Positions 34,002-62,937 of a stretch of 64,000 nt of DNA are shown in pieces. Each line of letters starts with the position of its first letter. Position 1 is the stretch's first letter. The position numbers and the translations under genes were made by a program. This stretch comes from an uncultured archaeon. Its GTDB lineage: Archaea; Thermoplasmatota; Penumbrarchaeia; JASLWR01. The DNA is taken from assembly GCA_964430885.1 (NCBI GenBank), contig CAYSHM010000011.1, positions 1 through 64,000 on the forward strand, in the 5' to 3' direction. Below the pieces are notes generated by a model. That model was not told where the DNA came from, searched no databases, and saw only the letters and a list, made by a program, of their open reading frames with translations.

Positions 34002-35102
34002 TTGAAATTACTTTTCATGAACTGGAGGGATATAAGTCACCCTGAAGCAGGTGGCTGTGAACTGCATCTGCATGAGATAACCAAAAGGTTAGCTAAATGG
34101 GGTCATGACATAACGCTTTTCTGCGGTGCCTATGAAGGATCCAAGGAAGAGGAGGTGGTAGACGGCATCAGGGTAATAAGAAAAGGAGGCCCCTATACAG
34201 TTTATTTCAGATCTGCCCTTGATTATATATTCCGGTTGAGAAAGAAAAGGTTCGATATTGTTGTGGATGACATTAACGGTGTTCCTTTTTTCACACCTTT
34301 CTACATAGGCCGGCCCAAATTGGCCATACTGCATCATCTGGTGAAGGATATATTTTTCAGAGAGCTTCCAGTCCCTCTGAGACCCGTTGCCTATCTGGCA
34401 GAACGCTCTATTCCAGTTTACTATGGAAGGACAAAATTCGTAACTGTTTCGGACAGCACAAAAAATGAGATGATCGCAGCCGGAATTCCATCAGATAATA
34501 TCCATGTCATTCACAATGGTATATCTGGCGATTATTCTCCGGATAAAAATAATCGTTCTCAATTTCCCCATCTGGTTTACCTGGGACGCCTGAAAGCATA
34601 CAAACAGCTAGATCACCTCTTAAAGGTTGTGGGCATCCTTAAGAATGATTTTAAGAGACTCCACCTCTCTATTGCTGGGACCGGTGATGCGGAGGAGGAT
34701 CTGAAGAAGAAAGCCGGAGAATTGGGAATTGGGAATATGGTGGATTTTTTGGGATTTATATCTGAAAAAGAAAAAGTTGAACTCCTTCAAAGTGGCTGGT
34801 TATTTGTTACACCGTCGGAAAAGGAAGGTTGGGGTCTTACAGTAATCGAAGCCAATGCCTGTGGACTTCCCACTGTGGGCTATGATGTACCAGGGTTGAG
34901 AGATTCGATAAAAAAGGATAAAACCGGATTGCTCGTGGAGAATATGGAGCCGAAATATCTTGCTGAAGGAGTTAGGGAGTTATTGTCCAATGATGGCAGA
35001 AGGGAAAAAATGGCTGAAAATGCACTGAAATGGTCTGAGAATTTCAGCTGGGATAAGACAGCTAGAAGGTTTTTGGATCTAATTTCAGAAGAAATGTTAT
35101 GA
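34002..35102 (+). CDS. GT4 (GT-B) glycosyltransferase
   Basis: NWRDISHPEAGGCE, YLGRL, PSEKEGWGLTVIEANACG. Confidence 0.92.
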   Translation: MKLLFMNWRDISHPEAGGCELHLHEITKRLAKWGHDITLFCGAYEGSKEEEVVDGIRVIRKGGPYTVYFRSALDYIFRLRKKRFDIVVDDINGVPFFTPFYIGRPKLAILHHLVKDIFFRELPVPLRPVAYLAERSIPVYYGRTKFVTVSDSTKNEMIAAGIPSDNIHVIHNGISGDYSPDKNNRSQFPHLVYLGRLKAYKQLDHLLKVVGILKNDFKRLHLSIAGTGDAEEDLKKKAGELGIGNMVDFLGFISEKEKVELLQSGWLFVTPSEKEGWGLTVIEANACGLPTVGYDVPGLRDSIKKDKTGLLVENMEPKYLAEGVRELLSNDGRREKMAENALKWSENFSWDKTARRFLDLISEEML

Positions 35103-35280
35103 GAATTCCTTTTCTCAACTCCAAGAAATTAATAATCAATGTTCTATAGTAGCTTATTCATAAATAACGGGTTTTTATTATTGAAAAATGATATGTATAA
35201 TTAGACACCTGTTAAAAACCCAAAAAATGGATTTAAGGAATAATCGGATGACAGCGCAGTAAAGAGAAGCGGGTATTGAA

Positions 35281-36876: not shown

Positions 36877-36920
36877 ACCTAGTTCAAGCTGAGTGGATTC
36901 TTGGGAATCATAGATAATAA

Positions 36921-38642: not shown

Positions 38643-38644
38643 AA

Positions 38645-44254: not shown

Positions 44255-44269
44255 AGCGGAAAATTGATT

Positions 44270-45634
44270 TTATATCTCAGTACTATCCAGACTGTTTTCG
44301 AGTGTTTTCTTGTCTAGAAAAAGGGTTAAAAGCAGTATTATTGCAGATATTGCAATGTTTGATGCAAGGAATATCAAAAGAAAAATCCATAGTGTTTCGG
44401 AAACAGTGTAAAGTATCACCAGCTCGGTGATGGTGAGGATCAAGAAGGTATGGATGACTAATAACTTCTTTTTAGCTAGATTATAGTAGATTAAAAGGGT
44501 GGTTATTGAAAAAAAGAAAATAGTAAGGGCATATACGGGCAGGTATTTCTCCGCGCCTAGGAATTCCCTGCCGTAGACCAGTCTCAGCACGGTCGCTGGA
44601 AAAAAAGCCAGGACTGAGACCGCAAGACCTGCCAGCAGTATTGTAAAACCTAAGCTCTTAAGAAGTAGTTTTTTTTGATTATCATAGGTATTGAGTCCCT
44701 GAACCACCTTTGGGAACATAACGGTGGCCACGGCCATTGGCAGGAAGAATATTATTTTACCGAAAATCGAGGCGGCAGCATATAGACCAGTGTCCTGAGA
44801 GAACAGGTTTTTTACAAGTAGAACATCTATATTTGTGGGGGTCATTATACAAATGACCGAGAGAAATACCGGCAGGGAAAAACTTGATATGTTTTTGAAA
44901 TCCAATTTTTCATTCCTGACCTGATTCTTTATTTGGTCTGCTTTCTTTTTTCTGTATTGGTAACAATGTATTAGTATAAATGAAATAACAAGGGCGGTCA
45001 GCTGTCCCATAACGATACCGCTGACAGCTCCGTAAATACCCATTCCAATAAGTACCAGTGCAACGCCTACACCTAATTTCACAACCGCTTGGGAAACATT
45101 GGATGCGGCCAGGGACCAGAACCTCTGTGAGCCCTGCAGGAACCCCAGATTCACTGGCAATACGAATGATATCAGCAGTACAGCACCCACTGGGACTATC
45201 ACAAATACAGGGGACATATGCAGGAATTCCCCGATAACCCTGCTCATTACGCACATTACAATAAATCCAGTAAATGCGAACGCAGTCAGATAGAGAATCA
45301 TTTTTCGATATAGTTTTTCAATGCTCAGATTATCTCCTATAGATTTGAAACGAGAAATATACCTGGCTGCAATAAGTTTGATTGTCCTGCTGGATATTGA
45401 AAAAATAAAAAAAGATAGTGCGAAAACAGCACTGAAATCCCCATATGTGTCCTTGCCCAGACTTCTGCCCATGATTATATGATAAAGTTGGTTCAACAAC
45501 CCTGCGGTCATTGTAGCCAAGATCATTATGGTTCCCGATCTATATAGATCATCTGATTTCAATCTTGATATCAATCCCACAAATTCGTTCTCCGTATTCG
45601 ATTTTGATCCATGAAAGGTTTTTGGGTTGGTCAA
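44270..45634 (-). CDS. Wzx/MOP-family oligosaccharide flippase
   Basis: About 12 TMs; GRSLGKDTYGDF, GFLQGSQRF, NIDVLLVK, GLYAAA, VMFPKV. Confidence 0.88.
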   Translation of the reverse strand: MTNPKTFHGSKSNTENEFVGLISRLKSDDLYRSGTIMILATMTAGLLNQLYHIIMGRSLGKDTYGDFSAVFALSFFIFSISSRTIKLIAARYISRFKSIGDNLSIEKLYRKMILYLTAFAFTGFIVMCVMSRVIGEFLHMSPVFVIVPVGAVLLISFVLPVNLGFLQGSQRFWSLAASNVSQAVVKLGVGVALVLIGMGIYGAVSGIVMGQLTALVISFILIHCYQYRKKKADQIKNQVRNEKLDFKNISSFSLPVFLSVICIMTPTNIDVLLVKNLFSQDTGLYAAASIFGKIIFFLPMAVATVMFPKVVQGLNTYDNQKKLLLKSLGFTILLAGLAVSVLAFFPATVLRLVYGREFLGAEKYLPVYALTIFFFSITTLLIYYNLAKKKLLVIHTFLILTITELVILYTVSETLWIFLLIFLASNIAISAIILLLTLFLDKKTLENSLDSTEI

Positions 45635-45829
45635 TTGACAGCCGTGTAGGACCGAGACATGATGAAAATGATTTAATCTTTACCTGATTCTCTACCAAAT
45701 AGGGTCAAAATAAACGTAGAAATGTGATATTTATATACCTAAAAAGAGACAATCGGGTTGAATTATTAAGTATTGTTCAGCCAAAATGGTAATTATTGGA
45801 CCTACTGGAAAAAAAATTTATATATATAA

Positions 45830-48631
45830 TTGACCTTAGAATCAGGTATGAGAAGAGCAATAGCTGTCGGATTAATTTTAATTCTATGCATTAACGGGGC
45901 TAACCTATTTTTTCTAACTGCTGCCGAAAACGGAATTCAAACCATCGAACCTCAGGAGAGCTGGGTACTTGAATTGGATAATCTGGTTTCAGGGGATCGG
46001 ATCATTTGGAGTTGGAGCGTTGACGAATATCAGCTTGATTTCAGTCTAGTAGATCCCAATGATGGTATTGGCCATTATGATATATTAGATGAGGATTCGG
46101 ATTCGGGTTCTTTTACGGTGCCCATGGACGGTACGTGGACCCTATCATGGGAGAATACCATGGACCCCTCTGCTTCCTATGATTATTCAGTGGAGCTAAC
46201 CTGGGATGTGGAAGTTGAACCCAGGAATATACCACCTACTGCCATTATCCTCAATTCCGAGACCGATGGAACTGCTCCTCATACTGTTGTATTCAACGGT
46301 TCTGGTTTGGATATCGACGGTGAGATAGTATCATATCATTGGGATTTTGGAGAGGGTAATGAAAGCAATCAGCGCAATGTTACCTACACTTTCGATAATC
46401 CCGGTAAATATGTGGTCACTCTGAATGTTACCGATGACAGACTGGGCTATGATGAGACCAATGTGACAGTAAATGTAAATGAAGCCCCCGCAGCGATCTG
46501 TACGGCAGATCCTCTAGTGGAATATGTGGGTATGCCTATCCAGTTCACCGGATCAGGAACTGATAACGACGGGACCATTGAGAGCTATCACTGGTGGTTC
46601 GGAGACGGCAACGAGAGCACCACCCAGAATCCCGTCTTCTCCTATGAAAGACCCGGCACCTATACTGTGGTACTGAACGTAACAGATGACAAGGGGGCAA
46701 ACGGAACCGCTTCTTTAACAGTGACAATACACGGTGTGGATTCGGATTGGAGTATGGGAGTGTATGAGATAATGCTGCTAGATGGATATGAGGTGAAATT
46801 CAGTGTCATTCTTCTCCAGTTCAATCCTTATGCACTTCAGGATATTGTTCAGAAGGTTGAATGGGATTTCGGCGACGGCCAAACAGAGGATGTTATAGGC
46901 ATGTACGGGCTTGTCATCCACAAATATGCCGTGTCGAATAAATACAACTTCAAATGCAGGATCTACCTCAAGAACGGGTTGGTCAGCGATTGGCTTGAAG
47001 GCTCGGTTTCACCTTTAGCCACAGGGCAGAATTATATCTATCTGATCCTCGGTCCGATGGAATGGTCCGATGGCAATCCTATGAGTGGAGTTCAGGTTAC
47101 TCTGAATGGTGATACTAGGGCCTCTTACACCAAAACAACCAATGAAGGCGGTATAGCCGTTTTCGAAGATCCTGTGGATTTCGGAACTTATTCATATAAG
47201 ATAACAAAGACCGATGACGGAAAGACAGTTACCATATTCGAAGGTGATTTTACAATAGACGCCAATACCACTAACAACGCTACCTGGGCGCCCCAGGGAG
47301 TGGATTTTGAATCACCTTATACCGAAGATGAGTTCGATGAGCTCGCAGGTTTCAAGGAGATCCAGCCCCCTGAGGAGAAACTCGAACAGGTGGAAGAAAA
47401 GTTCTTGGAAGATGTTCCCAAGGACCTCTATGTGGGCGATAAGAAGGTATCTGCCACTGTGAAGAAGGAAGATGATGACACAGTGACCCTGGACCTTGAT
47501 AAGGCCAAGGGAGTAAAGCTGGATAAGAACCAGCCGGTTGAAGTGGACAGCGACGGTGACGGTAAGAATGATATGGAGGTCACCTACAAGGGCGACGACA
47601 GCCAGGGAAACCCAATATTGATATTTGAGGAAAAAAAGGCCAGTAGCGATACGGGTGACGGTGGTAATACCCTTGTCATTGTCATTGTAGCTATAGTGGT
47701 GGTTTTAATTGTTCTAATGGTAATACTCTTATTGGCCAGGAAGAAATCTTCTGAGGATGAAGAAGAACAGATGGATGATGAAGAAATTGCGGATGAAGAG
47801 GAGTATTATGAAGATACCGAATTAGATGAATCGCAGGATTACGATTTCAAGGATGATGAACTGGGGGATGTAGAGGTGGTGGACCATTCACTGGCTGCAT
47901 CTGATGGAGCAGTTGCCGAATTCGGGAAACAGGAGGAGGCCCAGTATGAATGTCCCGAATGCGGGGCTATGGTGGGTGAAACTGCATCTTCCTGTCCTGG
48001 CTGCGGTGTGCAGTTCTATGAAGAAGATATGGAAGAAATGGTGGAGCTTGAAGCTGAGGAAGAGGAGAGTGGAGAGGTAGAGGACGTGGGCTCAGCATCC
48101 GAAATGGAAGAATTGGAATCTTTGGATGAGGGCAACTCGGAAGCTCAAGATGACTATCAGGAGGAAGGGATGGTGGAGGATTCCTTAGTAGAATACAATG
48201 GCGAAAGTAATGCTTTGGATGAGTTTGGAGAATTGGATGATCTCTTCGATGATGAGGGTCAGCAAGAGGCTGATGAGGCCGATGGCTTGGATGAAGATGA
48301 TGAATTGACCATGGACGATATAGAAGAGGCTTCTGAAGAGGAAGGCGGGGATTTTAAAGCAGAAACTGATGATATGGTAACGGTCGAAGAGGATATGGAA
48401 GAGGATATGGAAGAGGATATGGAAGAGGAAATGGAGGAATCAGAAACCGAGGAAATTTCCCAAGAAGTGATGGAAGGAAGTGACGTCACTGCTGAAGATT
48501 CCTCGGAAGCTCAAGAAAGTGACACCCACGAAGATGAAGACGAGGAAGAAGATGATGTGGGTGATGATACAGAAAGTGACGATGTAGAAGACATATTCTC
48601 TGATCTGGACGACTTGGACCTGTGGGAATAG
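45830..48631 (+). CDS. Single-pass surface protein: PKD domains, TM, cytoplasmic Zn ribbon and very long acidic tail
   Basis: Signal peptide; WDFGEG/WWFGDG/WDFGDG PKD motifs; TM followed by RKK; CPECG...CPGCG; >250 aa D/E-rich tail. Confidence 0.82.
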   Translation: MTLESGMRRAIAVGLILILCINGANLFFLTAAENGIQTIEPQESWVLELDNLVSGDRIIWSWSVDEYQLDFSLVDPNDGIGHYDILDEDSDSGSFTVPMDGTWTLSWENTMDPSASYDYSVELTWDVEVEPRNIPPTAIILNSETDGTAPHTVVFNGSGLDIDGEIVSYHWDFGEGNESNQRNVTYTFDNPGKYVVTLNVTDDRLGYDETNVTVNVNEAPAAICTADPLVEYVGMPIQFTGSGTDNDGTIESYHWWFGDGNESTTQNPVFSYERPGTYTVVLNVTDDKGANGTASLTVTIHGVDSDWSMGVYEIMLLDGYEVKFSVILLQFNPYALQDIVQKVEWDFGDGQTEDVIGMYGLVIHKYAVSNKYNFKCRIYLKNGLVSDWLEGSVSPLATGQNYIYLILGPMEWSDGNPMSGVQVTLNGDTRASYTKTTNEGGIAVFEDPVDFGTYSYKITKTDDGKTVTIFEGDFTIDANTTNNATWAPQGVDFESPYTEDEFDELAGFKEIQPPEEKLEQVEEKFLEDVPKDLYVGDKKVSATVKKEDDDTVTLDLDKAKGVKLDKNQPVEVDSDGDGKNDMEVTYKGDDSQGNPILIFEEKKASSDTGDGGNTLVIVIVAIVVVLIVLMVILLLARKKSSEDEEEQMDDEEIADEEEYYEDTELDESQDYDFKDDELGDVEVVDHSLAASDGAVAEFGKQEEAQYECPECGAMVGETASSCPGCGVQFYEEDMEEMVELEAEEEESGEVEDVGSASEMEELESLDEGNSEAQDDYQEEGMVEDSLVEYNGESNALDEFGELDDLFDDEGQQEADEADGLDEDDELTMDDIEEASEEEGGDFKAETDDMVTVEEDMEEDMEEDMEEEMEESETEEISQEVMEGSDVTAEDSSEAQESDTHEDEDEEEDDVGDDTESDDVEDIFSDLDDLDLWE
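48386..48433 (+). repeat. 12-bp coding tandem repeat (EEDM x3 + EEEM)
   Basis: gaagaggatatg x3 then gaagaggaaatg. Confidence 0.85.
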
Positions 48632-48791
48632 AACTAATAACGTCAACATCTGAAATGATTCATTGGAGATATACATATCATCAGGATAAGTTAGGTTCCA
48701 CCCTTGCAATAACAGTAGAAAAACCTAAGCAAATAAATCATTTTTTTGTTCCAGAGTTAGAATTTCAAATTTTTCAAAGAGGTGAAGCGTA

Positions 48792-50213
48792 ATCAAAGCC
48801 ATAATACTGGGGTTGGATGGGGCGACGTGGAATCTCTTAAGGCCTCTAGCTGATAGGGGATATCTACCAACCTTCAAAAGGCTGATGACCGAAGGATGCT
48901 GGGGGAATCTCGAGAGTACAAATCCTCCTGTTACATTTCCTGCGTGGAAAAGTTTTTCAACAGGGATGAATCCAGGCAAGCTTGGGATATTTGGGCATAT
49001 TCAGCTGGAAAATGGAAAATTAATTGTATGCAATTCAACCACTGCAAAAAATAATACTGAAATATGGGATCATATGTCTGCAGTTGGTAAGAGAGTAGCA
49101 GTTATCGGCGTACCCATTACCTACCCACCCAAGCCAGTGAATGGAATAATGGTATCGGGACCTTTCTCGGTGGGACATAATTACACCTATCCGTCAGAAT
49201 TGGAAAAGACCCTGGAAAAGAAATATAATTATGATCCTTTTCCCGAGGAATTCCTTCTATCTGAGGAAAAGGATATTGAAGTACTAATAAGGAATGTAAA
49301 ATCCAAATTTGATTTTCTAGATGATGTAGTCGAAAAGGATTATGATCTGGTCTGTTCGGTCATTTTTGAAACGGATACGGCCCAGCATTTTTTATGGAGA
49401 ACAAAGGGATTGAAAAAATTCTGGAAGGTTATAGACCGCAGATTGAATGGTTTGGTCACTTTCATTGATAACAACCCTGAATACAATCTTATCATGTGTT
49501 CAGACCATGGATTTCATGGTATGAAAGGCGCTTTATATCTGAATGAATGGCTGAGGAAAAAGGGTTATTTGAAGTTGAAGGGTAAATTCAAATGGATTCA
49601 CGTCTTAAGTAAAATGGGAATCACCAGCAACTTTCTTTATTCAATGGCAAGAAGGTTAAGACTTCTGAAGATACTCCGAAAAACCTTTTCACCCGAGACC
49701 CTTAGAAAGATCGGAAAGACACTGCCTACAAAAAATAAAATGATATTAGACCAGGGGATTGGGAGTATTATAGACATGGACAGGTCCAGAGCTTTTTTTG
49801 TTGAAGGTGGTATTTATATTAAGAATCAAAGGGACAAGACAAAGATATTGAAGGAGTTATCCCGGTTGGAGGATAAGGATGGTATTAGATATCTGGATAT
49901 AAAAGATAAAACAGACGAATATTGGGGTGATTATGTTGATGCGGCCCCGGATATTCTAGTGTGGTCGAAGTATTACTCTTTAAGAGGCCATGTATCTTTT
50001 GAGAAGCGGAAGGAATTGGTGTCATCTGCCGAGGAAGATAAGTGGGTTGCAACTCACCAGAAACACGGAATTTTTCTAGCTTACGGTGCGGACATCAAGA
50101 AGGGGAAGAGGGTTGACGCCCATATCTATGACATTGCACCAACTGTACTATCAATGTACGGATTGAAGAAATCAAAGGAAATGGATGGGGAAGTAATAGA
50201 GTCTATATTTTGA
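48792..50213 (+). CDS. Alkaline-phosphatase superfamily phosphodiesterase-like (COG3379), paralogue 3
   Basis: (I)KAIILGLDGATW, STNPPVTFPAW, TGMNPGK, DTAQH, SDHGF; inferred ATC start 48792, 6 nt after SD GAGGTGA. Confidence 0.87.
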   Translation: MKAIILGLDGATWNLLRPLADRGYLPTFKRLMTEGCWGNLESTNPPVTFPAWKSFSTGMNPGKLGIFGHIQLENGKLIVCNSTTAKNNTEIWDHMSAVGKRVAVIGVPITYPPKPVNGIMVSGPFSVGHNYTYPSELEKTLEKKYNYDPFPEEFLLSEEKDIEVLIRNVKSKFDFLDDVVEKDYDLVCSVIFETDTAQHFLWRTKGLKKFWKVIDRRLNGLVTFIDNNPEYNLIMCSDHGFHGMKGALYLNEWLRKKGYLKLKGKFKWIHVLSKMGITSNFLYSMARRLRLLKILRKTFSPETLRKIGKTLPTKNKMILDQGIGSIIDMDRSRAFFVEGGIYIKNQRDKTKILKELSRLEDKDGIRYLDIKDKTDEYWGDYVDAAPDILVWSKYYSLRGHVSFEKRKELVSSAEEDKWVATHQKHGIFLAYGADIKKGKRVDAHIYDIAPTVLSMYGLKKSKEMDGEVIESIF

Positions 50214-50604: not shown

Positions 50605-50950
50605 ACTTATGAGCGAACATTTGTGAGCGATTAAGTTGGTCTGTCAGCGAAATCTTTGATGTTGCTATACGGCTCCATTACGAGTGAAAGTTAAGCAATA
50701 CTCTATTGTAAAAGAGATGGCCTATCCCTCAAATACTTATTTTCTGGAAAATGTACCAATTCTTATTAAGATATTGCCTTGATAATTTATTTTAAAAATC
50801 CAAGAGGCGACTAAATATTTACATTGACTGAAGCCTTTTTTTCAATTTTTTCAAGGAAAGGAATGTTTTTTACTATAATGAAGATAATTTTTAATATAAA
50901 ATGCGCTATTTCCCTCTGGTTAAGAATATTTAAATTCAAAGGTGATATTA

Positions 50951-51331
50951 ATGGGATTGTGGCAAGGAAGGTCCAAGAGAAAGGAGACAGGTGGCCGAAG
51001 ACGACATACCAGGAAGAAAAGAAAATACGAGTTGGGTGATGACACGCTTTACACCTTCGTTGGTGAGAGAAAGACCCGAATGATCCGATGCAGGGGTGGA
51101 AAGGAAAAAGTAAGGCTTCTCAGAGCAGACATGGCTAATGTTATGGATTCAAAGACTAATAAATGTCAAAGGGTGAAGATAATAAGCGTACTGGAAAACC
51201 CTGCAAATGTTCACTATGTTAGAAGGAACATTGTCACAAAGGGAGCAATAATCGAGATTGAGGACGGCGGCAAAGCAAAGGTCACTTCAAGACCCAGCCA
51301 GCACGGCATTGTAAATGCTATCAAATTATAA
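50951..51331 (+). CDS. rps8e: 30S ribosomal protein S8e
   Basis: MGLWQGRSKRKETGGR, KRKYELG, NPANVHYVRRNIVTKGAII, TSRPSQHGIVNA; ATG 50951 after AGGTGA. Confidence 0.96.
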   Translation: MGLWQGRSKRKETGGRRRHTRKKRKYELGDDTLYTFVGERKTRMIRCRGGKEKVRLLRADMANVMDSKTNKCQRVKIISVLENPANVHYVRRNIVTKGAIIEIEDGGKAKVTSRPSQHGIVNAIKL

Positions 51332-51405
51332 TGTTGCCGATCTTTGAAATAATTATTGTTAGAGTTTAAGATGCAGGTATTAAAATTCAAAATAAAGATG
51401 ATAAA

Positions 51406-51786
51406 ATGGTATCCAAAAGAGAAGGTTTTTTAGTTTTATGGCCGACTTATTTTGATAAGGAGACATCCCGAAGGGATGGCCGTAGGATACCATCGTCATA
51501 TGCTGTGCCCGCTCCAAGCGGGGAGGATATTGCTTTCATCTGCAGCCGAATTAAACTTACACCTCATTTGCATAAGGAAGTGGCCCATCCACGGGAACCC
51601 TTGCAAAAAATAACCAGGGTATTGGTCAGAAAACCCACTCACAAAGGTAAGAAAATCTCTAAACAGAAACTTCTGAAAATTATCGGAAAGCGCTTATTCA
51701 AATGGTTCTCTGAAGTTACTGAAAAAAGGAGAAAACAACAATTGGCTCAGATCCTAGATAAGATCAAGGTTTACGAACAGGAATAA
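51406..51786 (+). CDS. srp19: Signal recognition particle protein SRP19
   Basis: VLWPTYFD...SRRDGRRIP...HPR...SKQKLLKII; adjacent to rps8e as in other archaea. Confidence 0.88.
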   Translation: MVSKREGFLVLWPTYFDKETSRRDGRRIPSSYAVPAPSGEDIAFICSRIKLTPHLHKEVAHPREPLQKITRVLVRKPTHKGKKISKQKLLKIIGKRLFKWFSEVTEKRRKQQLAQILDKIKVYEQE

Positions 51787-51916
51787 GAAATGTTCATTAT
51801 CACTACTGCCCTAAGATTTGAAAACGATTAGATAGATTAATAAGTTAAGATTGAAGTAATGATATTAACGAATACTGATTGGAATGGGAATTTGAATACA
51901 GATATGAGGGATTAGT

Positions 51917-52246
51917 CTGGGACGAGAAAACAGGTATAATAATACAGATGATGGGTACATCCGGGTTAAGCTTCCGCACAAAAAGAAAGGTGAGATATTC
52001 GCCATTGCGGAGGATCTTCTAGGTGGATCACGGCTTATTGTGATGTGTGAAGATGGCAAATCCAGGATGGCAAGGATACCTGGCCGTATGAAGAAAAGAA
52101 TGTGGATCAAACCTAAGGATCTCCTTATAATAAAGCCCTGGCAATTCCAGGATGATAAAGCAGATGTTGTCTATAGGTACATCAAATCTCAAGCAAGTTA
52201 TTTGTCCCGTAAGAATAGATTGCCTAACATTATTGATATTTTTTAG
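51917..52246 (+). CDS. eif1a: Translation initiation factor aIF-1A (non-canonical start inferred)
   Basis: In-frame RVKLP...GEIFAIAEDLLGGSRLIVMCEDGKSRMARIPGRMKKRMWI...PWQFQDDKADVVYRY; no ATG/GTG/TTG between upstream TGA 51905 and 52040; CTG 51917 follows GAGGG. Confidence 0.9.
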   Translation: MGRENRYNNTDDGYIRVKLPHKKKGEIFAIAEDLLGGSRLIVMCEDGKSRMARIPGRMKKRMWIKPKDLLIIKPWQFQDDKADVVYRYIKSQASYLSRKNRLPNIIDIF

Positions 52247-52364
52247 TAGCAAAATAACTGAAGGAATAATTGCATTTATTCCTTGTTGGAATATATTTCA
52301 GGCGTCCATTCCAAATAATTCTACATCCTGTTGAAGTTCCGTTTTTTATTCGAGAAATATTAAA

Positions 52365-53225
52365 ATGAACAATGAAAATATTGGAATAATATGTCTAAAC
52401 ATACGGAAGATTGGTAAGATGGGATCAAATGAGATGTATCAGCTGCTGGAGGAGAGGATTGATGGATATAGGAAGGTTAAAAGAACCAAGAGGGATGATT
52501 GCCAGAGAAAAGCTTTCAAAGAGGTTTTTGATAACTCCACATTAATGGTTCTCTATAAAATGATCACCAAGGGTTACTTGGACACCATTGATTATCCCAT
52601 ATCCACCGGAAAGGAGGGTAATGTCTTCAAGGCCACTGACAGGGATGGGAATCCCCTGGTGGCAAAGATATTCCGCACCACGGCAGTTACCTTTAAGAAT
52701 ATAATGAAGTATATAGAGGGGAATCCCCGTTACCGCAATGTGGGTGGGAATCGCCGTCAACTCATATTCACCTGGGCTAGAAAGGAGTTTGATAATCTCT
52801 CCCGTATGAGGAAGTACGGGATAAGGGCTCCAATTCCCTATTATGTTGATAAGAATATCATAATCATGGAGTATATCGGGAACGATATTTCTCCTGCACC
52901 GCTATTGAAAGCCGTACCCATTCCAGATCCAGATAAATTTTATTTAGATACCATAGATACCTATTTCAGAATGTTCAATGAGGCAAAATTGGTCCATTCC
53001 GACCTGAGTGAGTATAATATATTGGTAGGGGATAATATGGAACTAATTTGGATAGACGTGGGTCAAGCAGTCATTTTGGATCATCACATGAGCTATAGCT
53101 GGTTGGTGAGGGATATTAAGAATATATCAAATTTCTTTAAAAGACGCGGCGCGGAGACAGATTGGAAAAAGGCGGTGAGATATGTCCGCTCAGGGGAGTT
53201 GAACCCTGAAGGATTTCAATGCTAG
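52365..53225 (+). CDS. rio1: RIO1-family serine/threonine kinase
   Basis: EVFD, ISTGKEGNVF, WARKEFDNL, MEYIG, VHSDLSEYNIL, IDVGQAV. Confidence 0.93.
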   Translation: MNNENIGIICLNIRKIGKMGSNEMYQLLEERIDGYRKVKRTKRDDCQRKAFKEVFDNSTLMVLYKMITKGYLDTIDYPISTGKEGNVFKATDRDGNPLVAKIFRTTAVTFKNIMKYIEGNPRYRNVGGNRRQLIFTWARKEFDNLSRMRKYGIRAPIPYYVDKNIIIMEYIGNDISPAPLLKAVPIPDPDKFYLDTIDTYFRMFNEAKLVHSDLSEYNILVGDNMELIWIDVGQAVILDHHMSYSWLVRDIKNISNFFKRRGAETDWKKAVRYVRSGELNPEGFQC

Positions 53226-53249
53226 ATATCAGTTTACGGGGTGAAATAA

Positions 53250-53810
53250 ATGCAGTATGTAAGAATACCGAAGGACCGTATTCCAGTTCTGATAGGAGAT
53301 GACGGAAAAATCCGAAAACAGATCGAGGCCAAGACCGGAGCAATGCTTAGAATAGATTCATCAGAAGGAACAGTTACCATAGATCTCTCTAAAGCGGAGG
53401 ATCCCATGCATAAGTTGAAGGTCAGGGATGTAATCAAGGCAATTGGAAGGGGTTTTAATCCAAAAAAGGCTATGAACATAATTGACAGGGATCATTATTT
53501 TGAATTAATAGATATCAAGGAGTATGCTGGAAACAATCCCAAAAGGATCAAGCAGTTAAAGGGAAGGCTTATCGGTAAGGAAGGGAAAACAAGAAGGCTG
53601 GTAGAGAACCTCACCGACTGTCGCCTTTCAATTTACGGCCATACTGTTGGCATGATCGGGGAGGTGTTGAATGTTTCCATTGCTAAAACTGCTATAGATA
53701 TGCTTCTGGAAGGTTCAAAACATGCCAAGGTTTATCAGTACCTGGAAAGCAAGCAGAGAGATCTTCGGTACAAGGATGATAATTATTTTTACGATGGCGA
53801 AGAAATCTGA
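53250..53810 (+). CDS. KH-domain pre-rRNA processing protein (Pno1/Dim2-like)
   Basis: RIPVLIG, KAIGRGF, KGRLIGKEGKTR, GSKHAKVY; conserved aIF-1A-RIO1-KH cluster. Confidence 0.9.
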   Translation: MQYVRIPKDRIPVLIGDDGKIRKQIEAKTGAMLRIDSSEGTVTIDLSKAEDPMHKLKVRDVIKAIGRGFNPKKAMNIIDRDHYFELIDIKEYAGNNPKRIKQLKGRLIGKEGKTRRLVENLTDCRLSIYGHTVGMIGEVLNVSIAKTAIDMLLEGSKHAKVYQYLESKQRDLRYKDDNYFYDGEEI

Positions 53811-53871: not shown

Positions 53872-56700
53872 TCACTGCAACCTGCATTTGCATTCAGGAC
53901 AGAGGAGCCATCCGTCTTCTACATCCGATCCGCAGTTGGGACAGCTAGGTGATTCCTGTAATTCGTCTTCGCTCTCGCTTTCGTCGAGAAGTTCAGCATC
54001 GATAGTTTTGGGTTTGATTGCTTTTTTCTCAACAACCTTAGGCGGTTTTGGAGATTGTACCGGCAGGTCTTCTGAAAGGGTCGATCTGGCCAGATCTGAT
54101 AGGTTCTGGTATGAATTGGCTTCATTCCTATAGCCGCTGGGAGGTCCCCGCTGGAATTCAGATATTCCAGGCAGATAGGACATATCAGACTCGGGGTATC
54201 CCGTACCTCCAAATCCCTGGCCTGCCGGAAGGGCCAATTGCTGATAGTTGGCCCCAAATCCCATAGGTCCTGGGGGAAGATAGGCATTCGCCGAATAGCC
54301 AGGATATGGAGCAGGCATGGGTAGTGCAGGATGTTGATAGAGTGGCCCGCCGTAAGGATAGGCCCCCATACCGGCACCTTCACCGCTGAGATCGGAAGTT
54401 CTCACCGAATAACCAGGTTGAACTCTCTCTTCTTTACTGGACTCGCCCATGGGTCCTACCATCTCTGGTTCTTCTTCTTCCTTTCCTTTACCCTTAAGGA
54501 GAAGCAGTACGCTTCCGGCTATTATCAGAAGAACAATGAGTATTATCAGCAACCACCAGTACCAATTTTCCATAATTTTCCCCATTTTATCGTCATCGCT
54601 CTCGGTCTTCGTCTTGGCATTGAAACGAAGTAATGATTCTTCGGTATAGAGCAATTCACCCCTTTCCTCAGACAGCTCATGGTCGTGGCGGTTACTGCTT
54701 TGAATCACCAATTTCAGGTTCACCAGGGGCTTTGTTACTTCATAGTCATCTATGATCTTTGTATAGCTTATATTGGCCGCAATTGAATCTATAGCTATCT
54801 TTTCCAAGGAGGTTTCTGGCAGGTCCTGGTTGGTAAAACTGATATTGATCTTTTCAATTGTCTCTGTTCCGCGGTTTTCGATCCTCAGTACCAATCCAAT
54901 CTTATCGCCCACATCGATTTTATCCCTATCAACATCATCAGCTAAACTCAATATAGGTATCACCAGATAGGGGCTTTCCAGAACCCTAATGGTGGTTGTA
55001 ATATTGGACGTAGCACCGTGGTCGTCGCTGACAGTTAGAGTGATCTGATGAAGGCCCGGTTCGAGGTTATTTATTAATGATGCACTTTTACCCAGCTCCC
55101 CTGAGATGTTGGATTCCCAGGTATAGAAACTGTCCCTGATATAGTCGCCGTCAGGGTCCTTGGTACCAGTAGCATCAAAGGTAATTTCTTCCCAGGTGTA
55201 ATACCCTTCTGAAGGGAATTCAGGGTCTGATAGTTTGATAACTGCGTTGGGGCCTTTGTTGGGTATCTTAATACTAGCCTCTGCTACCTCACCGTCAACA
55301 AAACTGTCATTGGGTATTACCTCGACCTTCCATGTATCAAAATGATTCAATTCAGTACCGGGGATCTGTTTTTTATCCACACCGGACAGTCCGCTCTGGA
55401 TCTCTCCGTTCCTGTACCACATATATGTATATGTGATGCGGTCTCCGTCGCTGTCCCTGGACGGCGAGGGATTATCCTTTGTGATTATACAGCTCAATGT
55501 CTCACTGCTGCTCTGGGTGTTGAGCTGAAGTTCAATATTCGGAGAATCAGGCGGATGGTTCACTACCTTGAAACTGTCTAAAACTATCTCTGAATTCTTG
55601 TAACCGTCAGTTGAGTAGAGCTCCATATAGTAGATATTGGCCATGGTGTTGGTATATTCATCTAGGTCCCCATAGGATAGTTCTTGATTTATTGTATATT
55701 CAGGCAGAGAAAGGGGAACCTCGTTTGCGATGGATTTCTCGTATGAGGGGGTAGCACTGATGCTGATTATGTATTTAATCTCTCTTTCGTCCTCAGGATC
55801 GGGGTCTGATGAAGGTGACCATGTGATCCTCGGTTCAAGTTCATGTGTGGTCAGTTCCTGGTCATCTATCTTCGTATCCCCGTCAACCTTGATGCCCACC
55901 GGTTTGGAGGGCGGAGTGTTCTCCTTGATCTCAAGATTCCTTTGACATTGGTCGGTCACATCGGACCAGAGTTCGTTTTCATCCATCACGCTGAATGTGA
56001 TCCTGTGAATACCTGATGTTAGGGGATTTTCAAGTTCCAAACTGGAGAATTGTCTCTCGTCACTAATAATTCCATCTATGCTGGATTCCCACTTATATTC
56101 AATGATATCATCGTTATCCTCGGTATCGGTTCCCTCTCCTTCAAATTCAACTTCGCGGCCTTCTCTTGCCGATGAGGGAGTAATTGAGGTTATGGAAGCT
56201 ACAGGCTTGGCATTGGTGGTAAATTTCCAGTTGGAGTATTGTCCCCATCCGTCCTCATCATGACATTTGACCGCCCAATAGTAGATTGTATCCATGATAA
56301 CCTTTTCCCCGGAGATCTGATGGCTCTTTGCGGACCCAATTTCTCCATCATAGATGTTCCCTGTAGCACTGTCGCTGTTGCATGGGCCCAGAGTGGATAT
56401 CTTGAGCCAAGTATTATCAATATCCTCGTGGGCGCCTCTGTATACCTCGGTCTGCTGCCAGGTCAGCTTAATAGACGGGCCTGTCAAACCTGTGGCGCCA
56501 TCCCCGGGAGAGGGATTCTTCGGCTGTCCGGGAGGATGTGTCGTTCTGCTGTCTGATTCCTCCATGGGCTGCGAGAAAACAGTTATTAGACCCAGACCTC
56601 CGATTAAAAGGGCACATATAATGAATAAAATCTTGATCTTCATCATCTTTTTTATCTCATGGTTATTGGATTTTCCTTTGATCATTCTATCACATTCCAA
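53872..56700 (-). CDS. Single-pass surface protein (FN3/PKD/CARDB-like repeats), Pro/Tyr-rich tail and C-terminal Zn ribbon
   Basis: Signal; PGQPKNPSPGDGA, YKWESSIDG, DPDGD, TVSDDHGA, IENRG; TM WWLLIILIVLLIIAG; CPNCG...CPEC. Confidence 0.8.
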   Translation of the reverse strand: MECDRMIKGKSNNHEIKKMMKIKILFIICALLIGGLGLITVFSQPMEESDSRTTHPPGQPKNPSPGDGATGLTGPSIKLTWQQTEVYRGAHEDIDNTWLKISTLGPCNSDSATGNIYDGEIGSAKSHQISGEKVIMDTIYYWAVKCHDEDGWGQYSNWKFTTNAKPVASITSITPSSAREGREVEFEGEGTDTEDNDDIIEYKWESSIDGIISDERQFSSLELENPLTSGIHRITFSVMDENELWSDVTDQCQRNLEIKENTPPSKPVGIKVDGDTKIDDQELTTHELEPRITWSPSSDPDPEDEREIKYIISISATPSYEKSIANEVPLSLPEYTINQELSYGDLDEYTNTMANIYYMELYSTDGYKNSEIVLDSFKVVNHPPDSPNIELQLNTQSSSETLSCIITKDNPSPSRDSDGDRITYTYMWYRNGEIQSGLSGVDKKQIPGTELNHFDTWKVEVIPNDSFVDGEVAEASIKIPNKGPNAVIKLSDPEFPSEGYYTWEEITFDATGTKDPDGDYIRDSFYTWESNISGELGKSASLINNLEPGLHQITLTVSDDHGATSNITTTIRVLESPYLVIPILSLADDVDRDKIDVGDKIGLVLRIENRGTETIEKINISFTNQDLPETSLEKIAIDSIAANISYTKIIDDYEVTKPLVNLKLVIQSSNRHDHELSEERGELLYTEESLLRFNAKTKTESDDDKMGKIMENWYWWLLIILIVLLIIAGSVLLLLKGKGKEEEEPEMVGPMGESSKEERVQPGYSVRTSDLSGEGAGMGAYPYGGPLYQHPALPMPAPYPGYSANAYLPPGPMGFGANYQQLALPAGQGFGGTGYPESDMSYLPGISEFQRGPPSGYRNEANSYQNLSDLARSTLSEDLPVQSPKPPKVVEKKAIKPKTIDAELLDESESEDELQESPSCPNCGSDVEDGWLLCPECKCRLQ

Positions 56701-59171: not shown

Positions 59172-60020
59172 TTAATTGAATGGATTCTTTTTCATGGGTA
59201 TTCCAAACACGGAATCGATATAAAGGACCCTGGCCTTTTTGGATTTCAGATCCTCAATCTTGAACTTCCATATGGGCAGATAAACAATATTTGTCTTCTC
59301 GAGTTTTGCCCCAAACATCTCCATGAGCTGTTTCGAAATGTATCTCTTGTTCACTCTTGGTTTTTCAGTATTTTTCGGAAGAAGTCCTACTGGAAGTTCC
59401 TTGAATTTGGTATTGCCATCAAGGTCCTTGATATTCTCCGGTTTTGCTGGAGTGATGTCGCTAAATTCCAGGCTTTCAGTAACCTGGAGCATTTTTCCGT
59501 TAAATCCATGGAAATAGAGGCTCTCAGAACTGATCTCATTTGCCCCGAACAATTTTTTCTTCTGGACACTGAATGACGCCTGGATGAGAGGAAGATACCT
59601 AAGCACCCCGGCTTCGACCTTTTCTAGGGGCTTGGAGAACAATCCGCCAGTTTTCTTCAACTGTTTTTGAGCTACCTTTGTTGCTTCGTTCTTTGGGAAA
59701 TTCATTTCCACAGTGGTCACGGTATCTTCTTTCGGCTGCTCTTCCTTCTTTTTCTCTTCCTTGGGTTTTTCCTTTTTCGATTTCTTATCCACGGGTTCCT
59801 TCCTAGGAGTTTCTACCTTCTTTTCTTCTTTTTTTCGGGTCATACCTTCCCCGCAGTCCCCGCAGAAGGCTGACCCCTTATCGTTGCCAGCGCCGCATTT
59901 TGGGCAGTCTTTTTTATTTTCGCTCTCCTTGAGGAGCTTGTTCCCGCATTCCATACAGAAAGCAGAATCATCTTCATTCTCAAATCCGCAATTTGAACAT
60001 TCCATCATGATAATCACCAA
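59172..60020 (-). CDS. Double zinc-ribbon protein with Lys/Glu linker and C-terminal globular domain
   Basis: CSNCG...FCMECG and CPKCG...FCGDCG; YLP repeats in the C-domain. Confidence 0.75.
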   Translation of the reverse strand: MVIIMMECSNCGFENEDDSAFCMECGNKLLKESENKKDCPKCGAGNDKGSAFCGDCGEGMTRKKEEKKVETPRKEPVDKKSKKEKPKEEKKKEEQPKEDTVTTVEMNFPKNEATKVAQKQLKKTGGLFSKPLEKVEAGVLRYLPLIQASFSVQKKKLFGANEISSESLYFHGFNGKMLQVTESLEFSDITPAKPENIKDLDGNTKFKELPVGLLPKNTEKPRVNKRYISKQLMEMFGAKLEKTNIVYLPIWKFKIEDLKSKKARVLYIDSVFGIPMKKNPFN

Positions 60021-60572: not shown

Positions 60573-62834
60573 TTAGAAAAATGTGAAATTGGATATTCCA
60601 AGATCTCCAAAAAGTATCAATACGGATGTGACGTATCCGAGTATGGCACCCCCGTTAAGAAGGGGCAGTCCGGCCTGTGGATTTCCTTTTAGTACAAATC
60701 TCATAAGAACCGTATAGCCTATAAGGCTTCCCAGAAGAGTTGACAGAGCAACTATCAAGGCCTTGTCCAATCCTCCTATACTGCCAGAAGGCAGAAAGGT
60801 GTAAGTGGAAATTACTAAAAGTCCCGGTATTATTATATCGCCCAGACCCATGAACATCGCCCCTCTTTTCTTCTTTTTATCCAATTGCTTTTTCAATCCT
60901 TCCTGCCGTCTGAAAGAGTATTCCCGGCTTTTAGGGATCACAAGTAATACGGGCAGCCTCATCTCCATAACGTTATCTGCCAAGGAGATCATGTGTTTGG
61001 TCTTGTAGACCGAGATGGCATCGTATATGGCTAATAGTGTAAGAAGCACAAGTATTGGAAGGATACTCAGAGATATTCCTATCATTGCCATTGCTCCGAC
61101 GCCCATGAACATGGCTATTGTATCCACAACATACCATTCAGGGTATACTATAAGAAGTCCAACAAGGGCTATTGAAACGCAGGCACCCACGATCCAAACC
61201 CAAAGGTGTTCCTTATGGGGTTCGATCTCCAAAATTTTTAATCCGTCGGCCCCGTATATCTCCAGTTCGACATATCCGTCCCCGTCAAGGTCCGATGCAG
61301 TAGAACCGATACTTCCAATGATCTTGTTCTCGGTCCTTCCCCTGTACTTGCTCCAATTGTTCTTCTCAAATATATATAATAATCCATCCGCGAGAACATA
61401 CAGAGCCCTCTCATTCTCGGAATCCAAACTTCTTTCTATATTGATATGCTGGATATTTCTACTTGAGAATTTCACCATGTCCCGGGATGTGAAAATATCA
61501 TTTTCATCAATTTGTTGACCGCTGACAAGGTTATCGATATTTACATTCAGTCCTACATATTTCCTGCTGTTGTAGAAAACACGTCTATATGATTTATCAA
61601 TTGTATGGGTCCTATCACTCCCCATTATCTCAGATATTTCTATCTTACCTACATATCTGCTGCTGAGTTCAGGTCCAGAAACGGAAGCGCCGTTTCCGGA
61701 TAGGTTATCATTCTGTCCGGTTAATTCATAAAGGTGAAGTGATCCGTTCATCTCAAAACCCGTCAAAAAGTCTCCCTCCTTCAAGGAATCGAGAAAGATG
61801 CAGTCCTTGAGAATGTCGGATTTATATTCGGCACTTTGGATGGGATCCGGAACGATAATGGAATCTAGTTGTATATCTGATTTTAGCATATTATTGAGAT
61901 TGATCATGTTATTATCTGAGATGCTCAGCCCCCAGGATATCAGATTGATATCAACAGTATTGTTTTTTTCAGATGTATATGTTATCGAGTATACGGTGGG
62001 TATGGATGTGAGGGGGCCTATATCAAGGTCAAAGCAAATGTCCTTTCCCACAGTGGTATTGATATTATTAACATCCCAAACTCCATTAAGGCTGGACATG
62101 GAAAGAAATGATATGCTTTCCCCGTCATTTTGGTTCCTTCCGAATATCATCACTGCAATAGTATGGCCATCATTTTTTCTATTATTTTCAGGTTCCAAAA
62201 CTTTAGTGCTTATGGCTGCCTTCTCAACATAGGGATTTATGTCCTGGAAATACAGATCCTTACCGTTAAGTTCTATATGAAAGATCCCTTCCTTATCGAT
62301 ATAAAGGATGAATTTATCATCCTCCATATCAAGGCGTTGGAAATCCAGAAAGCTTTTGTCCGAATACTGTAGTGTCCAGCTTTCATCATAGTCGTATACC
62401 GCAGCATCTAGTACCGGAGCGATCACATAGATTATCACCATAAAAACAGAGAAAAGAAATATCCATTTCACTATCTTTTTTTTCCTCTTCTTTGCAATGT
62501 AAAGTATGAAAAGGGAAAAGATAATTATAAACGCGATATAGAAAAGCGGTATCGAAACAGCATCGGCATTCTTGAATGCTCTCATTCCCTTCTGGACAAA
62601 AATAGGAGATATGAACAGACCTACCAATATCGTCACTATAAATATTAGACCAATACCCACAGCTGAAAGGTAGTCAGAGTAGTTCAGGTCAGGTTTTTTT
62701 TCCTTTTTCCCCTTTCCTTCACGGTTTTCATTTTCACTGTCCAGACCCTGAACCTCTTCTGCATTTACTTCCTCTTGGCCGCCCGAAATTGTGTAAGTAT
62801 CGGATATTTTCTCATTTTCTTTAGTTTCTTCCAT
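60573..62834 (-). CDS. Presenilin-family (GxGD) intramembrane aspartyl protease with ~400-aa insertion
   Basis: PEWYVVD, AIYDAISVYKTKHMISLA (Asp1), FMGLGDIIIP (Asp2), PQAGLPLLN; hydrophilic insert at about 61206-62400. Confidence 0.9.
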   Translation of the reverse strand: MEETKENEKISDTYTISGGQEEVNAEEVQGLDSENENREGKGKKEKKPDLNYSDYLSAVGIGLIFIVTILVGLFISPIFVQKGMRAFKNADAVSIPLFYIAFIIIFSLFILYIAKKRKKKIVKWIFLFSVFMVIIYVIAPVLDAAVYDYDESWTLQYSDKSFLDFQRLDMEDDKFILYIDKEGIFHIELNGKDLYFQDINPYVEKAAISTKVLEPENNRKNDGHTIAVMIFGRNQNDGESISFLSMSSLNGVWDVNNINTTVGKDICFDLDIGPLTSIPTVYSITYTSEKNNTVDINLISWGLSISDNNMINLNNMLKSDIQLDSIIVPDPIQSAEYKSDILKDCIFLDSLKEGDFLTGFEMNGSLHLYELTGQNDNLSGNGASVSGPELSSRYVGKIEISEIMGSDRTHTIDKSYRRVFYNSRKYVGLNVNIDNLVSGQQIDENDIFTSRDMVKFSSRNIQHINIERSLDSENERALYVLADGLLYIFEKNNWSKYRGRTENKIIGSIGSTASDLDGDGYVELEIYGADGLKILEIEPHKEHLWVWIVGACVSIALVGLLIVYPEWYVVDTIAMFMGVGAMAMIGISLSILPILVLLTLLAIYDAISVYKTKHMISLADNVMEMRLPVLLVIPKSREYSFRRQEGLKKQLDKKKKRGAMFMGLGDIIIPGLLVISTYTFLPSGSIGGLDKALIVALSTLLGSLIGYTVLMRFVLKGNPQAGLPLLNGGAILGYVTSVLILFGDLGISNFTFF

Positions 62835-62937
62835 GAACTCATCACTTCATTTTATACGGCCATGAACCCTTTAATAAGCTAAAAAGGTCATGTTCAAAAT
62901 TCTTAAAAACAGGATTGATTATATCGATTCAGTCTTT

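Follow-up and report, generated by a model that had tools for sequence, protein, structure and literature searches.

A stand-alone archaeal presenilin homologue with a predicted extracellular beta-propeller between TM3 and TM4, possibly a substrate filter in cis

What would a homologue of presenilin, the intramembrane protease known from Alzheimer research, do with a large ectodomain of its own? The question is raised by a gene in a 64,000-nucleotide stretch of DNA from an uncultured archaeon of the Thermoplasmatota (GenBank assembly GCA_964430885.1, contig CAYSHM010000011.1, positions 1 to 64,000; hereafter the window), which encodes on its minus strand a protein, here P0001, that combines the catalytic core of the archaeal presenilin homologues (PSH) with some 400 additional residues between the third and the fourth transmembrane (TM) segments. 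It appears to us almost certain that the anatomy of this protein is that of a nine-TM PSH core with an extracellular TM3-TM4 propeller of about seven blades and of FG-GAP descent. As to function, the reading that we prefer, at a probability of roughly 0.45 and largely by analogy, is that the propeller would act as an in-cis extracellular substrate filter of a stand-alone PSH protease. The parts of the gene are the following.

60573..62834, minus strand: whole gene of the long-form PSH P0001, a presenilin-family GxGD intramembrane aspartyl protease of 753 amino acids (aa); stop codon at 60573-60575
62682..62834, minus strand: acidic N-terminal tail, residues 1-51, predicted to be disordered and cytoplasmic; predicted local distance difference test (pLDDT) values of 38-46 for residues 1-40; 8 lysines plus arginines (K+R), 15 aspartates plus glutamates (D+E)
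62394..62681, minus strand: TM1-TM3 of the PSH core, residues 52-147, with helices 52-81, 94-115 and 119-147 and a predicted cytoplasmic TM2-TM3 loop, KKRKKK
61206..62393, minus strand: insert, residues 148-543, 396 aa, predicted extracellular all-beta propeller of about 7 blades (AlphaFold2, Foldseek, hhalign)
61266..61292, minus strand: DLDGDGYVE, residues 515-523, an FG-GAP or calcium-loop-like DxDxDG motif in the last predicted blade, adjoining TM4
60576..61205, minus strand: TM4-TM9 of the PSH core, residues 544-753, including the basic, predicted cytoplasmic TM6-TM7 loop (609-664, 14 K+R)
61020..61025, minus strand: YD motif, Y604-D605, first catalytic aspartate, in TM6 (helix 591-608)
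60837..60848, minus strand: GLGD motif, residues 663-666, second catalytic aspartate, at the start of TM7 (helix 665-680)
60663..60674, minus strand: AGLP motif, residues 721-724, before TM9, aligned with QAGLPP of the solved PSH

Is this an ordinary presenilin-type protease apart from the insert? The open reading frame (ORF) runs over 753 codons from an ATG without internal stops and is thus open over 2259 nucleotides (nt); the G+C content is even over the gene and its surroundings (0.38-0.39), and the exact protein is on record for two contigs. By sequence and by predicted fold alike, P0001 is a member of peptidase family A22 (archaeal PSH). It scores 286.5 bits against a cut-off of 125 with the NCBIfam equivalog model NF041679 (archaeal presenilin homologue PSH) and 236.9 bits against a cut-off of 23.9 with Pfam PF06550 (E 4.2e-70). 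The sole relative found among solved structures by sequence search is the PSH of Methanoculleus marisnigri (PDB 4hyc, E 2.5e-55), and this alignment falls into two blocks, in which residues 53-140 of P0001 correspond to residues 4-91 of the PSH and residues 554-738 to residues 111-290, which places the approximately 400 extra residues between TM3 and TM4. The YD, GLGD and AGLP motifs, of which the last is presumably the PSH counterpart of the presenilin PAL motif, are each invariant in 103 of 103 long PSHs. According to the available text of PMC2947513, the YD and GxGD motifs, together with the PAL motif near the C-terminus, are the signatures of the family. A sequence-only reading of the same DNA had described the protein as a 753-aa presenilin homologue with YD, GLGD and AGLP intact, and both the profile scores and the motif positions agree with this. 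The length of the N-terminal tail differs among the relatives of P0001.

What, then, is the insert? An AlphaFold2 run on the whole of P0001 with an alignment of 103 long PSHs (alignment A2) yielded a model with a mean pLDDT of 82.2, a predicted template modelling score (pTM) of 0.78 and nine TM helices, those of the C-terminal half spanning residues 544-563, 567-588, 591-608, 665-680, 691-715 and 719-742; for a chain of two domains, a pTM of this size suggests that the relative placement of the domains is predicted with confidence. Between residues 153 and 536, the model has 27 beta-strands and merely two short helices. The first strand begins 5 residues past TM3, the last one ends 7 residues before TM4, and the pLDDT at the junctions is 85-95. 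In a Foldseek comparison with the PDB, the TM part retrieved PSH structures (4y6k, 4hyg and 4hyc, 35-38% identity, score TMt 0.53-0.54) and the insert retrieved seven-bladed propellers, namely the EPTP domain of LGI1 (TMt 0.62-0.63) and eIF3i (0.60-0.64), BBS9 (0.61) and Lis1 (0.56-0.62). From the list of 27 strands, the predicted number of blades is about seven. The hydrophilic, beta-rich insert of about 400 aa that the sequence-only reading had seen at 61206-62400, between the third and fourth hydrophobic segments, can accordingly be delimited to 61206-62393, between TM3 and TM4.

The short linkers at both ends imply that the propeller would close with its N-terminal and C-terminal strands in one blade standing on TM3 and TM4; with these closing strands approximately perpendicular to the membrane, the propeller axis would be approximately perpendicular as well, and the domain would be flat like a plate. 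On this reasoning from the linkers, we infer a plate-like propeller lying flat above the membrane. A complex prediction in which TM1-3, TM4-9 and the propeller were entered as three chains gave no answer on whether the propeller docks on the core (score 0.00, mark 0.32, without controls), and speaks neither for nor against docking.

The predicted cytoplasmic loops contain 8+6+0+14+1 K+R (N-tail, TM2-3, TM4-5, TM6-7 and TM8-9, respectively) and the short outer loops 3+0+0+0, and the insert is acidic and hydrophilic, with 36 K+R against 65 D+E. These positive-inside counts, along with the homology to PSH and presenilin, place the insert outside the cell, and it is predicted to face outward. In the part of PMC2947513 consulted, the N-in orientation of presenilin is assumed for the M. 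marisnigri enzyme (MCMJR1), and the loop charges of P0001 match it. The earlier statement that the TM3-TM4 loop faces outside is in line with these counts, as far as a prediction goes, and a cytoplasmic placement finds no support. The insert has five N-x-S/T sequons (at 259, 291, 363, 377 and 493), so that the "several" noted before are present, but their number is at chance level: shuffling these residues yields 4.8 +/- 2.0, and 54% of 2000 shuffles reach five or more, so that enrichment is rejected.

Tracing the ancestry of the insert requires more than pairwise comparison. Pfam gave no FG-GAP match to the whole protein at E<=1 and no family at all for the insert alone at E<=10; a word-index search with residues 145-540 among proteins of 414-1318 aa returned only P0001 itself; and phmmer with the 400-aa insert against 1.84 billion representatives returned nothing at E<=0.001, the cluster of the query itself being likewise unreturned. 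When the insert profile of P0001-P0012, that is P0001 and its 11 nearest relatives, was compared by hhalign with that of 91 other long PSHs, the two aligned with a probability of 97% and an E value of 1e-10 over 304 columns, covering the whole domain. Furthermore, in a protein atlas the nearest clusters of the insert are all FG-GAP (scores 0.80-0.83), which we take as a lead only. By profile homology, therefore, the insert is a propeller of FG-GAP descent. The suggestion of a beta-propeller or FG-GAP domain made from the sequence alone thus held for the fold, through AlphaFold2 and Foldseek, and for the homology to relatives, and failed in that the insert of P0001 has no Pfam match of its own.

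The relatives themselves carry readable propellers. By hand count, 65 of 120 listed long PSHs have propeller-type Pfam domains (PF13517, PF01839, PF14783, PF23743, PF15907 and PF25292). A re-scan of six relatives found such matches upstream of the C-terminal PSH part in P0029, P0064, P0040 and P0016, the families matched in the inserts being FG-GAP_3, FG-GAP, Itfg2, BBS2_Mid and Beta-prop_BBS7; among the nearest relatives re-scanned, P0002 has a weak FG-GAP_3 match (E 0.0043) and P0011 none. The DLDGDGYVE motif at residues 515-523, which had been picked out before and is indeed present, is the sole DxDxDG-type motif remaining in the insert of P0001. Its residues D515, D517, D519 and E523 do not vary in any of the 12 nearest relatives; across the 103 long PSHs, the three aspartate positions hold D in 60, 68 and 62 sequences, respectively, and the position of E523 holds E or D in 80.

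Outside such positions the insert changes fast. P0001 and its 11 nearest relatives share 17.8% identity in the insert, compared with 49.9% in TM1-3 and 66.1% in TM4-9. In three closer subclades, the insert is at 60-83% identity when the core is at 90-100%, and in the divergent pair P0002/P0003 it is at 42% against 72-83%. What conservation there is concentrates at the two junctions, in an AAVY.xGE.W motif past TM3, whose tryptophan W153 is kept in 94 of 103 long PSHs, and in YVLxDG ... DxDxDG..E in the last blade. As a separate observation, P0002 and P0003 have within the propeller some 40 additional residues rich in Gly and Cys (columns ~425-470 of alignment A1) that are seen neither in P0001 nor in the nine other nearest sequences.

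Is P0001 an oddity of one assembly? A search with the C-terminal PSH part as the query among proteins of 414-1318 aa (E<=0.001) found long PSHs in at least 1105 clusters at 90% identity, which makes P0001 a member of a sizeable undescribed subfamily rather than a singleton. The 11 nearest relatives are 647-706 aa long, share 36-39% overall identity with P0001 and have 350-378 aa inserted at the identical position. Hence the insert is not unique to this assembly, a concern that had been raised from the sequence together with that of a chimera. Short PSHs are commoner, with at least 5702 clusters under 414 aa, fragments included. Among species-representative genomes, 582 stretches encode PSH relatives, of which the best 80 loci were analysed; they yielded 69 complete ORFs, the motif-based ORF finder having missed 7 and contig ends having cut 4. 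The TM3-TM4 loop in these 69 has 2-17 residues in 63 and 320-369 residues in 6, with no intermediates; with P0001-P0012 added (81 rows), it has 2-17 aa in 63 and 320-397 aa in 18, the insert of P0001 being the longest of the sample (397 aa as against 320-378). The view that archaeal PSHs are proteins of about 300 aa with short loops, taken as established by the sequence-only reading, accordingly holds for the characterised enzyme and for most entries (the at least 5702 clusters and the 63 of 69 ORFs just given) and is not general, considering the long clusters.

By taxonomy, nearly all of the 80 loci are from Thermoplasmatota or Bathyarchaeota, and the six long forms among them are all labelled Thermoplasmata or Thermoplasmatota. 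In a tree of the core columns, with the insert removed, computed for the 81 rows (P0001-P0012 and the 69 locus ORFs, P0013-P0120 being left out), 17 of the 18 long forms fall into one group (support of 94 in the Shimodaira-Hasegawa-like approximate likelihood ratio test, SH-aLRT), the long-branched L075 being unresolved beside it, and P0001 sits in a subclade of 13 rows that has full support. A constraint tree that holds all 18 long forms together has a log-likelihood better by 5.6 and is not rejected (p of 0.66 in the approximately unbiased test), so that a single insertion event, and with it a single origin of the long architecture in a Thermoplasmatota lineage, is the simplest reading of these sequences. 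The long form also appears, on weak grounds, to replace the ordinary short PSH in its lineage: no two of the 80 loci share an assembly, and genes that accompany the short form are retained near the long one (see below), which is why we read the long form as an orthologue of the short form and not as an extra copy.

All these sequences are already in databases as PSH, under the pipeline names "presenilin family intramembrane aspartyl protease PSH" or "presenilin-like A22 family membrane protease". In the literature that we searched, with subscription journals and bioRxiv supplements outside the search, no publication was found that describes a PSH carrying an inserted propeller or FG-GAP domain.

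How could a propeller serve a protease whose active site is buried in the membrane? In the substrate-filter reading, the propeller would lie over the outer mouth of the protease, tied to TM3 and TM4 via the one conserved blade, and would select the N-out (type I) single-pass proteins whose TM helix is let through to the active site. The likeliest means would be size exclusion, such that only stubs remaining after ectodomain shedding or damage would be cleaved; alternatively, the propeller might bind the juxtamembrane stub as an exosite. A plate-like domain on the outer end of TM3 would be placed to restrict approach to the entry side, and conserved junctions combined with a fast-changing surface are easier to reconcile with a steric filter than with a fixed ligand site.

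Several known systems make such an arrangement plausible. Presenilin-type enzymes cleave type I proteins (PMC2947513, part of which was available to us), and according to the available portion of PMC13507816, type I substrates of gamma-secretase with large ectodomains need prior shedding, the entry routes debated being those between TMD2/6 or TMD2/3. The likeness of P0001 to gamma-secretase lies in a presenilin-type core that would act on N-out single-pass proteins with a large ectodomain beside or above the site of substrate entry; the difference is that P0001 has its ectodomain in cis, as part of a loop, and that this ectodomain, a beta-propeller, bears no relation to nicastrin. The resemblance is consequently one of design only, not of homology. 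For its part, nicastrin reportedly acts by steric hindrance, as Bolduc is said to have shown in 2016. The closest mechanistic precedent is RseP of Escherichia coli, a member of the S2P family, whose periplasmic PDZ tandem, located in a loop between two TMs, is described in the accessible part of PMC7728848 as a size-exclusion filter; RseP differs in being a bacterial metalloprotease, in the PDZ fold and in the orientation of its substrates. Among the eukaryotic A22 members, SPPL2a/b/c have a built-in luminal or extracellular PA domain that affects substrate recognition, as far as the available text of PMC12043953 goes; this domain is N-terminal rather than inserted in a loop and has a different fold. 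Moreover, in the same part of PMC2947513 as above, SPP-type enzymes are given a membrane orientation opposite to that of presenilin and type II substrates.

Two further comparisons concern the parts of the protein. The only archaeal presenilin homologue with a solved structure, PSH/MCMJR1 of M. marisnigri (4hyc, 4hyd, 4hyg and 4y6k), shares with P0001 the NF041679 family, the motifs and the nine TM segments, and has about 20 residues between the matched blocks where P0001 has a 396-residue propeller, in addition to its 51-aa acidic N-tail. Other long PSHs of Thermoplasmatota have the same architecture, the same insertion site and homologous inserts, the subclade of P0001 being distinguished by the absence of Pfam-detectable FG-GAP signatures. 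The propeller of P0001 resembles the FG-GAP propellers of integrin alpha in the FG-GAP, FG-GAP_3 and Itfg2 matches of its relatives, in its one DxDxDG loop and in the inferred seven-blade fold, and differs from them in that the insert fails the FG-GAP Pfam models and has WD40, EPTP and BBS-type proteins as its top structural matches.

Could the genes around P0001 supply the substrates and partners? The features that bear on this are listed here; those of the six long-form loci are in locus coordinates.

62835..62937, minus strand: intergenic region upstream of the PSH gene, with TATAAAA starting 24 nt before the ATG, as read from the sequence
53872-56700, minus strand: 942-aa predicted N-out single-pass protein with weak PKD matches; 202-aa tail ending in a zinc ribbon (residues 919-937, Zn_ribbon_3, E 5.9e-4)
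16415-19015, minus strand: C25 surface peptidase
Peptidase genes of the long-form loci: L001, 10264-11133; L002, 8257-12468; L013, 1021-4731; L022, 1011-4685; L028, 3485-5479; L075, 7973-8923

The immediate neighbours of the PSH gene are ThiDN (plus strand), a double zinc-ribbon protein (59172-60020, minus strand), a 114-aa ORF (plus strand) and an ORF of 277 aa that matches Usp weakly (E 0.014). An operon partner for the PSH gene is rejected, as the last three of these are unmatched in the 80 loci. The TATAAAA sequence, to be compared with the archaeal TATA consensus, suggests by its position that the PSH gene possibly has its own promoter; between it and the ATG there is no obvious room for a leader, and the transcript is perhaps leaderless. 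In 39 of the 80 loci, the gene for ribosomal protein S8e follows about 0.7-1.7 kb downstream of the PSH gene and in the same orientation, accompanied in 31 by SRP19. This PSH-S8e-SRP19 neighbourhood is kept across Thermoplasmatota and is found in none of the six long-form loci; in the window, S8e-SRP19-RIO1-KH (50942-53810) lies 7-10 kb from the PSH gene on the other strand, and L075 keeps RIO1. The Pfam families of nicastrin, APH-1 and PEN-2 were found in none of the 43 window ORFs of at least 114 aa (E<=1e-5).

From the sequence alone, the window had been said to encode four type I single-pass proteins with elaborate tails and two surface proteases. The former are borne out by the layout of hydrophobic segments: in each of the 11370, 28430, 45830 and 53872 proteins, a hydrophobic segment at the N-terminus is followed by one late TM segment, as is expected of N-out single-pass proteins, with predicted cytoplasmic tails of 88, 142, 291 and 202 residues. 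The latter have to be restated, in that the C25 enzyme and a C11 domain are there, the C11 peptidase being the 28430 protein itself, a type I protein with PKD domains. Two of the tails deserve a remark. The 53872 protein, whose zinc ribbon is tethered to the membrane and whose gene lies 3.9 kb from that of the PSH, is the most signal-like candidate substrate; and the 45830 protein (45830-48631, plus strand), a type I PKD protein, has a 291-residue tail that is 46% Asp+Glu, unusually long and acidic.

In all six long-form loci, a peptidase gene lies within 6 kb of the PSH gene. The types are Trypsin_2, C1 with a lectin domain, S8 with FN3 (twice), C25 and A24, the A24 gene overlapping the stop of the PSH gene, and three of these peptidases are type I anchored with cytoplasmic tails. 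With the peptidase domains of the long loci themselves and the C25 and C11 domains of the window as queries, tblastn found none in the 74 other loci (750 kb). In a crude screen of ORFs of at least 300 aa, tailed type I proteins numbered 4 among the 25 ORFs of the window, 3 among the 32 of the long loci and 4 among the 399 of the short loci (Fisher test for 7/57 against 4/399, p 7e-5; p 0.04 without the window and with the related L013 and L022 counted once). Tailed type I proteins and peptidases might hence be enriched near long-form genes; the counts being small and confounded by lineage and neighbourhood, this is weak and a lead only.

Which explanations compete with a substrate filter? That the insert is an assembly chimera or the product of a decayed gene, foreign or junk DNA fused in frame into a non-functional protein, could be suspected on account of the absence of phmmer and Pfam matches to the insert alone; we consider this highly improbable and indeed ruled out, in view of the record on two contigs, the open frame of 2259 nt with its even G+C content, the 11 relatives at 36-39% identity with the same-site architecture, the other long clusters, the hhalign homology to the inserts of 91 other long PSHs, the confident predicted fold and the intact catalytic motifs. 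A more serious contender, although still unlikely in our view, is a scaffold in the envelope, in which the propeller would anchor or position the protease (among S-layer, surface glycoproteins or membrane complexes) or stabilise it, with no part in substrate choice, and the enzyme would do the housekeeping of a short PSH, such as the clearing of TM remnants. The seeming replacement of the short form by the long one (one PSH locus per assembly in the 80; S8e-SRP19-RIO1-KH within 10 kb) would suit this, as would the fast change of the insert, which is typical of surface-exposed domains of envelope proteins. Yet a domain of 400 aa at one exact site in at least 1105 clusters, with conserved junctions and without intermediates, suggests coupling to the core, and the precedents for extracytoplasmic domains of intramembrane proteases concern substrate selection. 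The junctions bear also on another possibility, one that we rate a little lower still, namely that the propeller is a sensor that binds an extracellular ligand, a glycan or Ca2+ and switches the protease through TM3 and TM4, making it a one-component receptor-protease and not a passive filter. FG-GAP propellers of integrin alpha bind Ca2+, and the insert descends from FG-GAP repeats, keeps a conserved DxDxDG motif in the very blade that joins TM4 and has short, confidently modelled linkers that could transmit movement. It must be noted, though, that just one such motif is left in P0001, that the surface outside the junction blade is poorly conserved, which is unexpected for a defined ligand site, and that the gene context points to no ligand or partner gene.

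The least likely of the functional schemes, improbable as it stands, is a special case of the filter and the full model of the sequence-only reading: a dedicated cascade of regulated intramembrane proteolysis (RIP), in which peptidases would shed the tailed PKD ectodomains, the propeller would recognise the stubs and the released tails would signal. The window offers the four N-out single-pass proteins, whose tails measure 88-291 aa and in one case end in a zinc ribbon, and the C25 and C11 surface peptidases, and by tblastn with the same families a peptidase is found within 6 kb at 6 of 6 long-form loci and at 0 of 74 others. Against it, these genes are spread across 50 kb without any being conserved beside the PSH gene, the family of the peptidase differs by locus (Trypsin_2, C1, S8, C25 and A24), and an abundance of surface peptidases may just be a trait of the lineage. 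A broader proposal, doubtful although perhaps marginally less so, is that a Thermoplasmatota lineage reached the design of gamma-secretase independently and in one polypeptide: the propeller would work like nicastrin or the PDZ filter of RseP, cleavage would depend on shedding and amount to presenilin-based RIP in archaea, and the substrates would be tailed type I surface proteins and peptidases, one of them with a zinc-ribbon tail, whose released tails would be signals.

The substrate filter that we favour over these alternatives has several facts weighing against it as well. The short PSH of M. marisnigri cleaves substrates without an ectodomain or cofactor (PMC2947513, in its available part), so that the mechanism as such does not call for a gate. 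A surface that changes this fast speaks against a single conserved ligand; it fits a steric role, and a tolerated or decorative domain equally well. With the phmmer search empty, the ancestry of the insert rests on profile and structure comparisons, and the subclade of P0001 is without recognisable FG-GAP motifs except one. As for the gene context, the 59172-60020 protein and the 114-aa and 277-aa ORFs have no counterpart in any of the 80 loci, 28 kb separate the PSH gene from the nearest surface peptidase in the window, and the enrichment near long forms has small counts, confounding by lineage and neighbourhood, and queries drawn from the long loci.

Why would the answer matter? The biological role of most archaeal membrane proteases is poorly understood or uncharacterised, in the words of the accessible part of PMC4343526, and the available text of PMC13507816 still lists the admission of substrates to gamma-secretase as an open question. 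If P0001 is active, a cofactor-free single-chain presenilin with its own ectodomain would be a simple system for the study of ectodomain gating, and such a natural one-piece design could show how presenilin-type proteases choose their substrates. As the pipelines label the subfamily plain PSH, the extra domain goes unnoticed; once recognised, the subfamily would give a handle on the turnover of surface proteins in uncultured, protein-degrading Thermoplasmatota.

A few minor observations remain. Among the short-loop PSHs, L016, L012, L031, L055 and L070 have N-terminal extensions of 228 or about 90-105 residues counted from the first start codon, which could be real domains or over-called starts. 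A long PSH of 710 aa (P0018) is in a record named [Eubacterium] cellulosolvens, and a short one (L064) in a metagenome-assembled genome labelled "Proteobacteria bacterium" adjoins the Thermoplasmatota row L041 in the tree; for such archaeal-type PSHs in bacteria-labelled records, mis-binning is likelier than gene transfer. Archaeal genes in the window include those for TFIIB, ribosomal protein S8e, SRP19, RIO1, Thi4, ThiDN and an exosome subunit. The 59172-60020 protein next to the PSH gene is soluble, with the double zinc ribbon at its start. Near the beginning of the window (247-2044, plus strand), a gene for a V4R/DUF835 protein (247-1371) precedes one for a small GTPase of the Ras family (1496-2044; Ras E 1.5e-35, Roc E 1.9e-28), the two forming an archaeal Ras-like GTPase pair. 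Finally, positions 33245-50213 hold a surface-glycan cluster with GT2, GT4, a Polysacc_synt flippase and three genes of the type I phosphodiesterase/nucleotide pyrophosphatase family, within which 38645-44254 encodes a protein of 1869 aa that has roughly a dozen hydrophobic segments in its N-terminal part, a CBM_4_9 domain and an anchor at the C-terminus.

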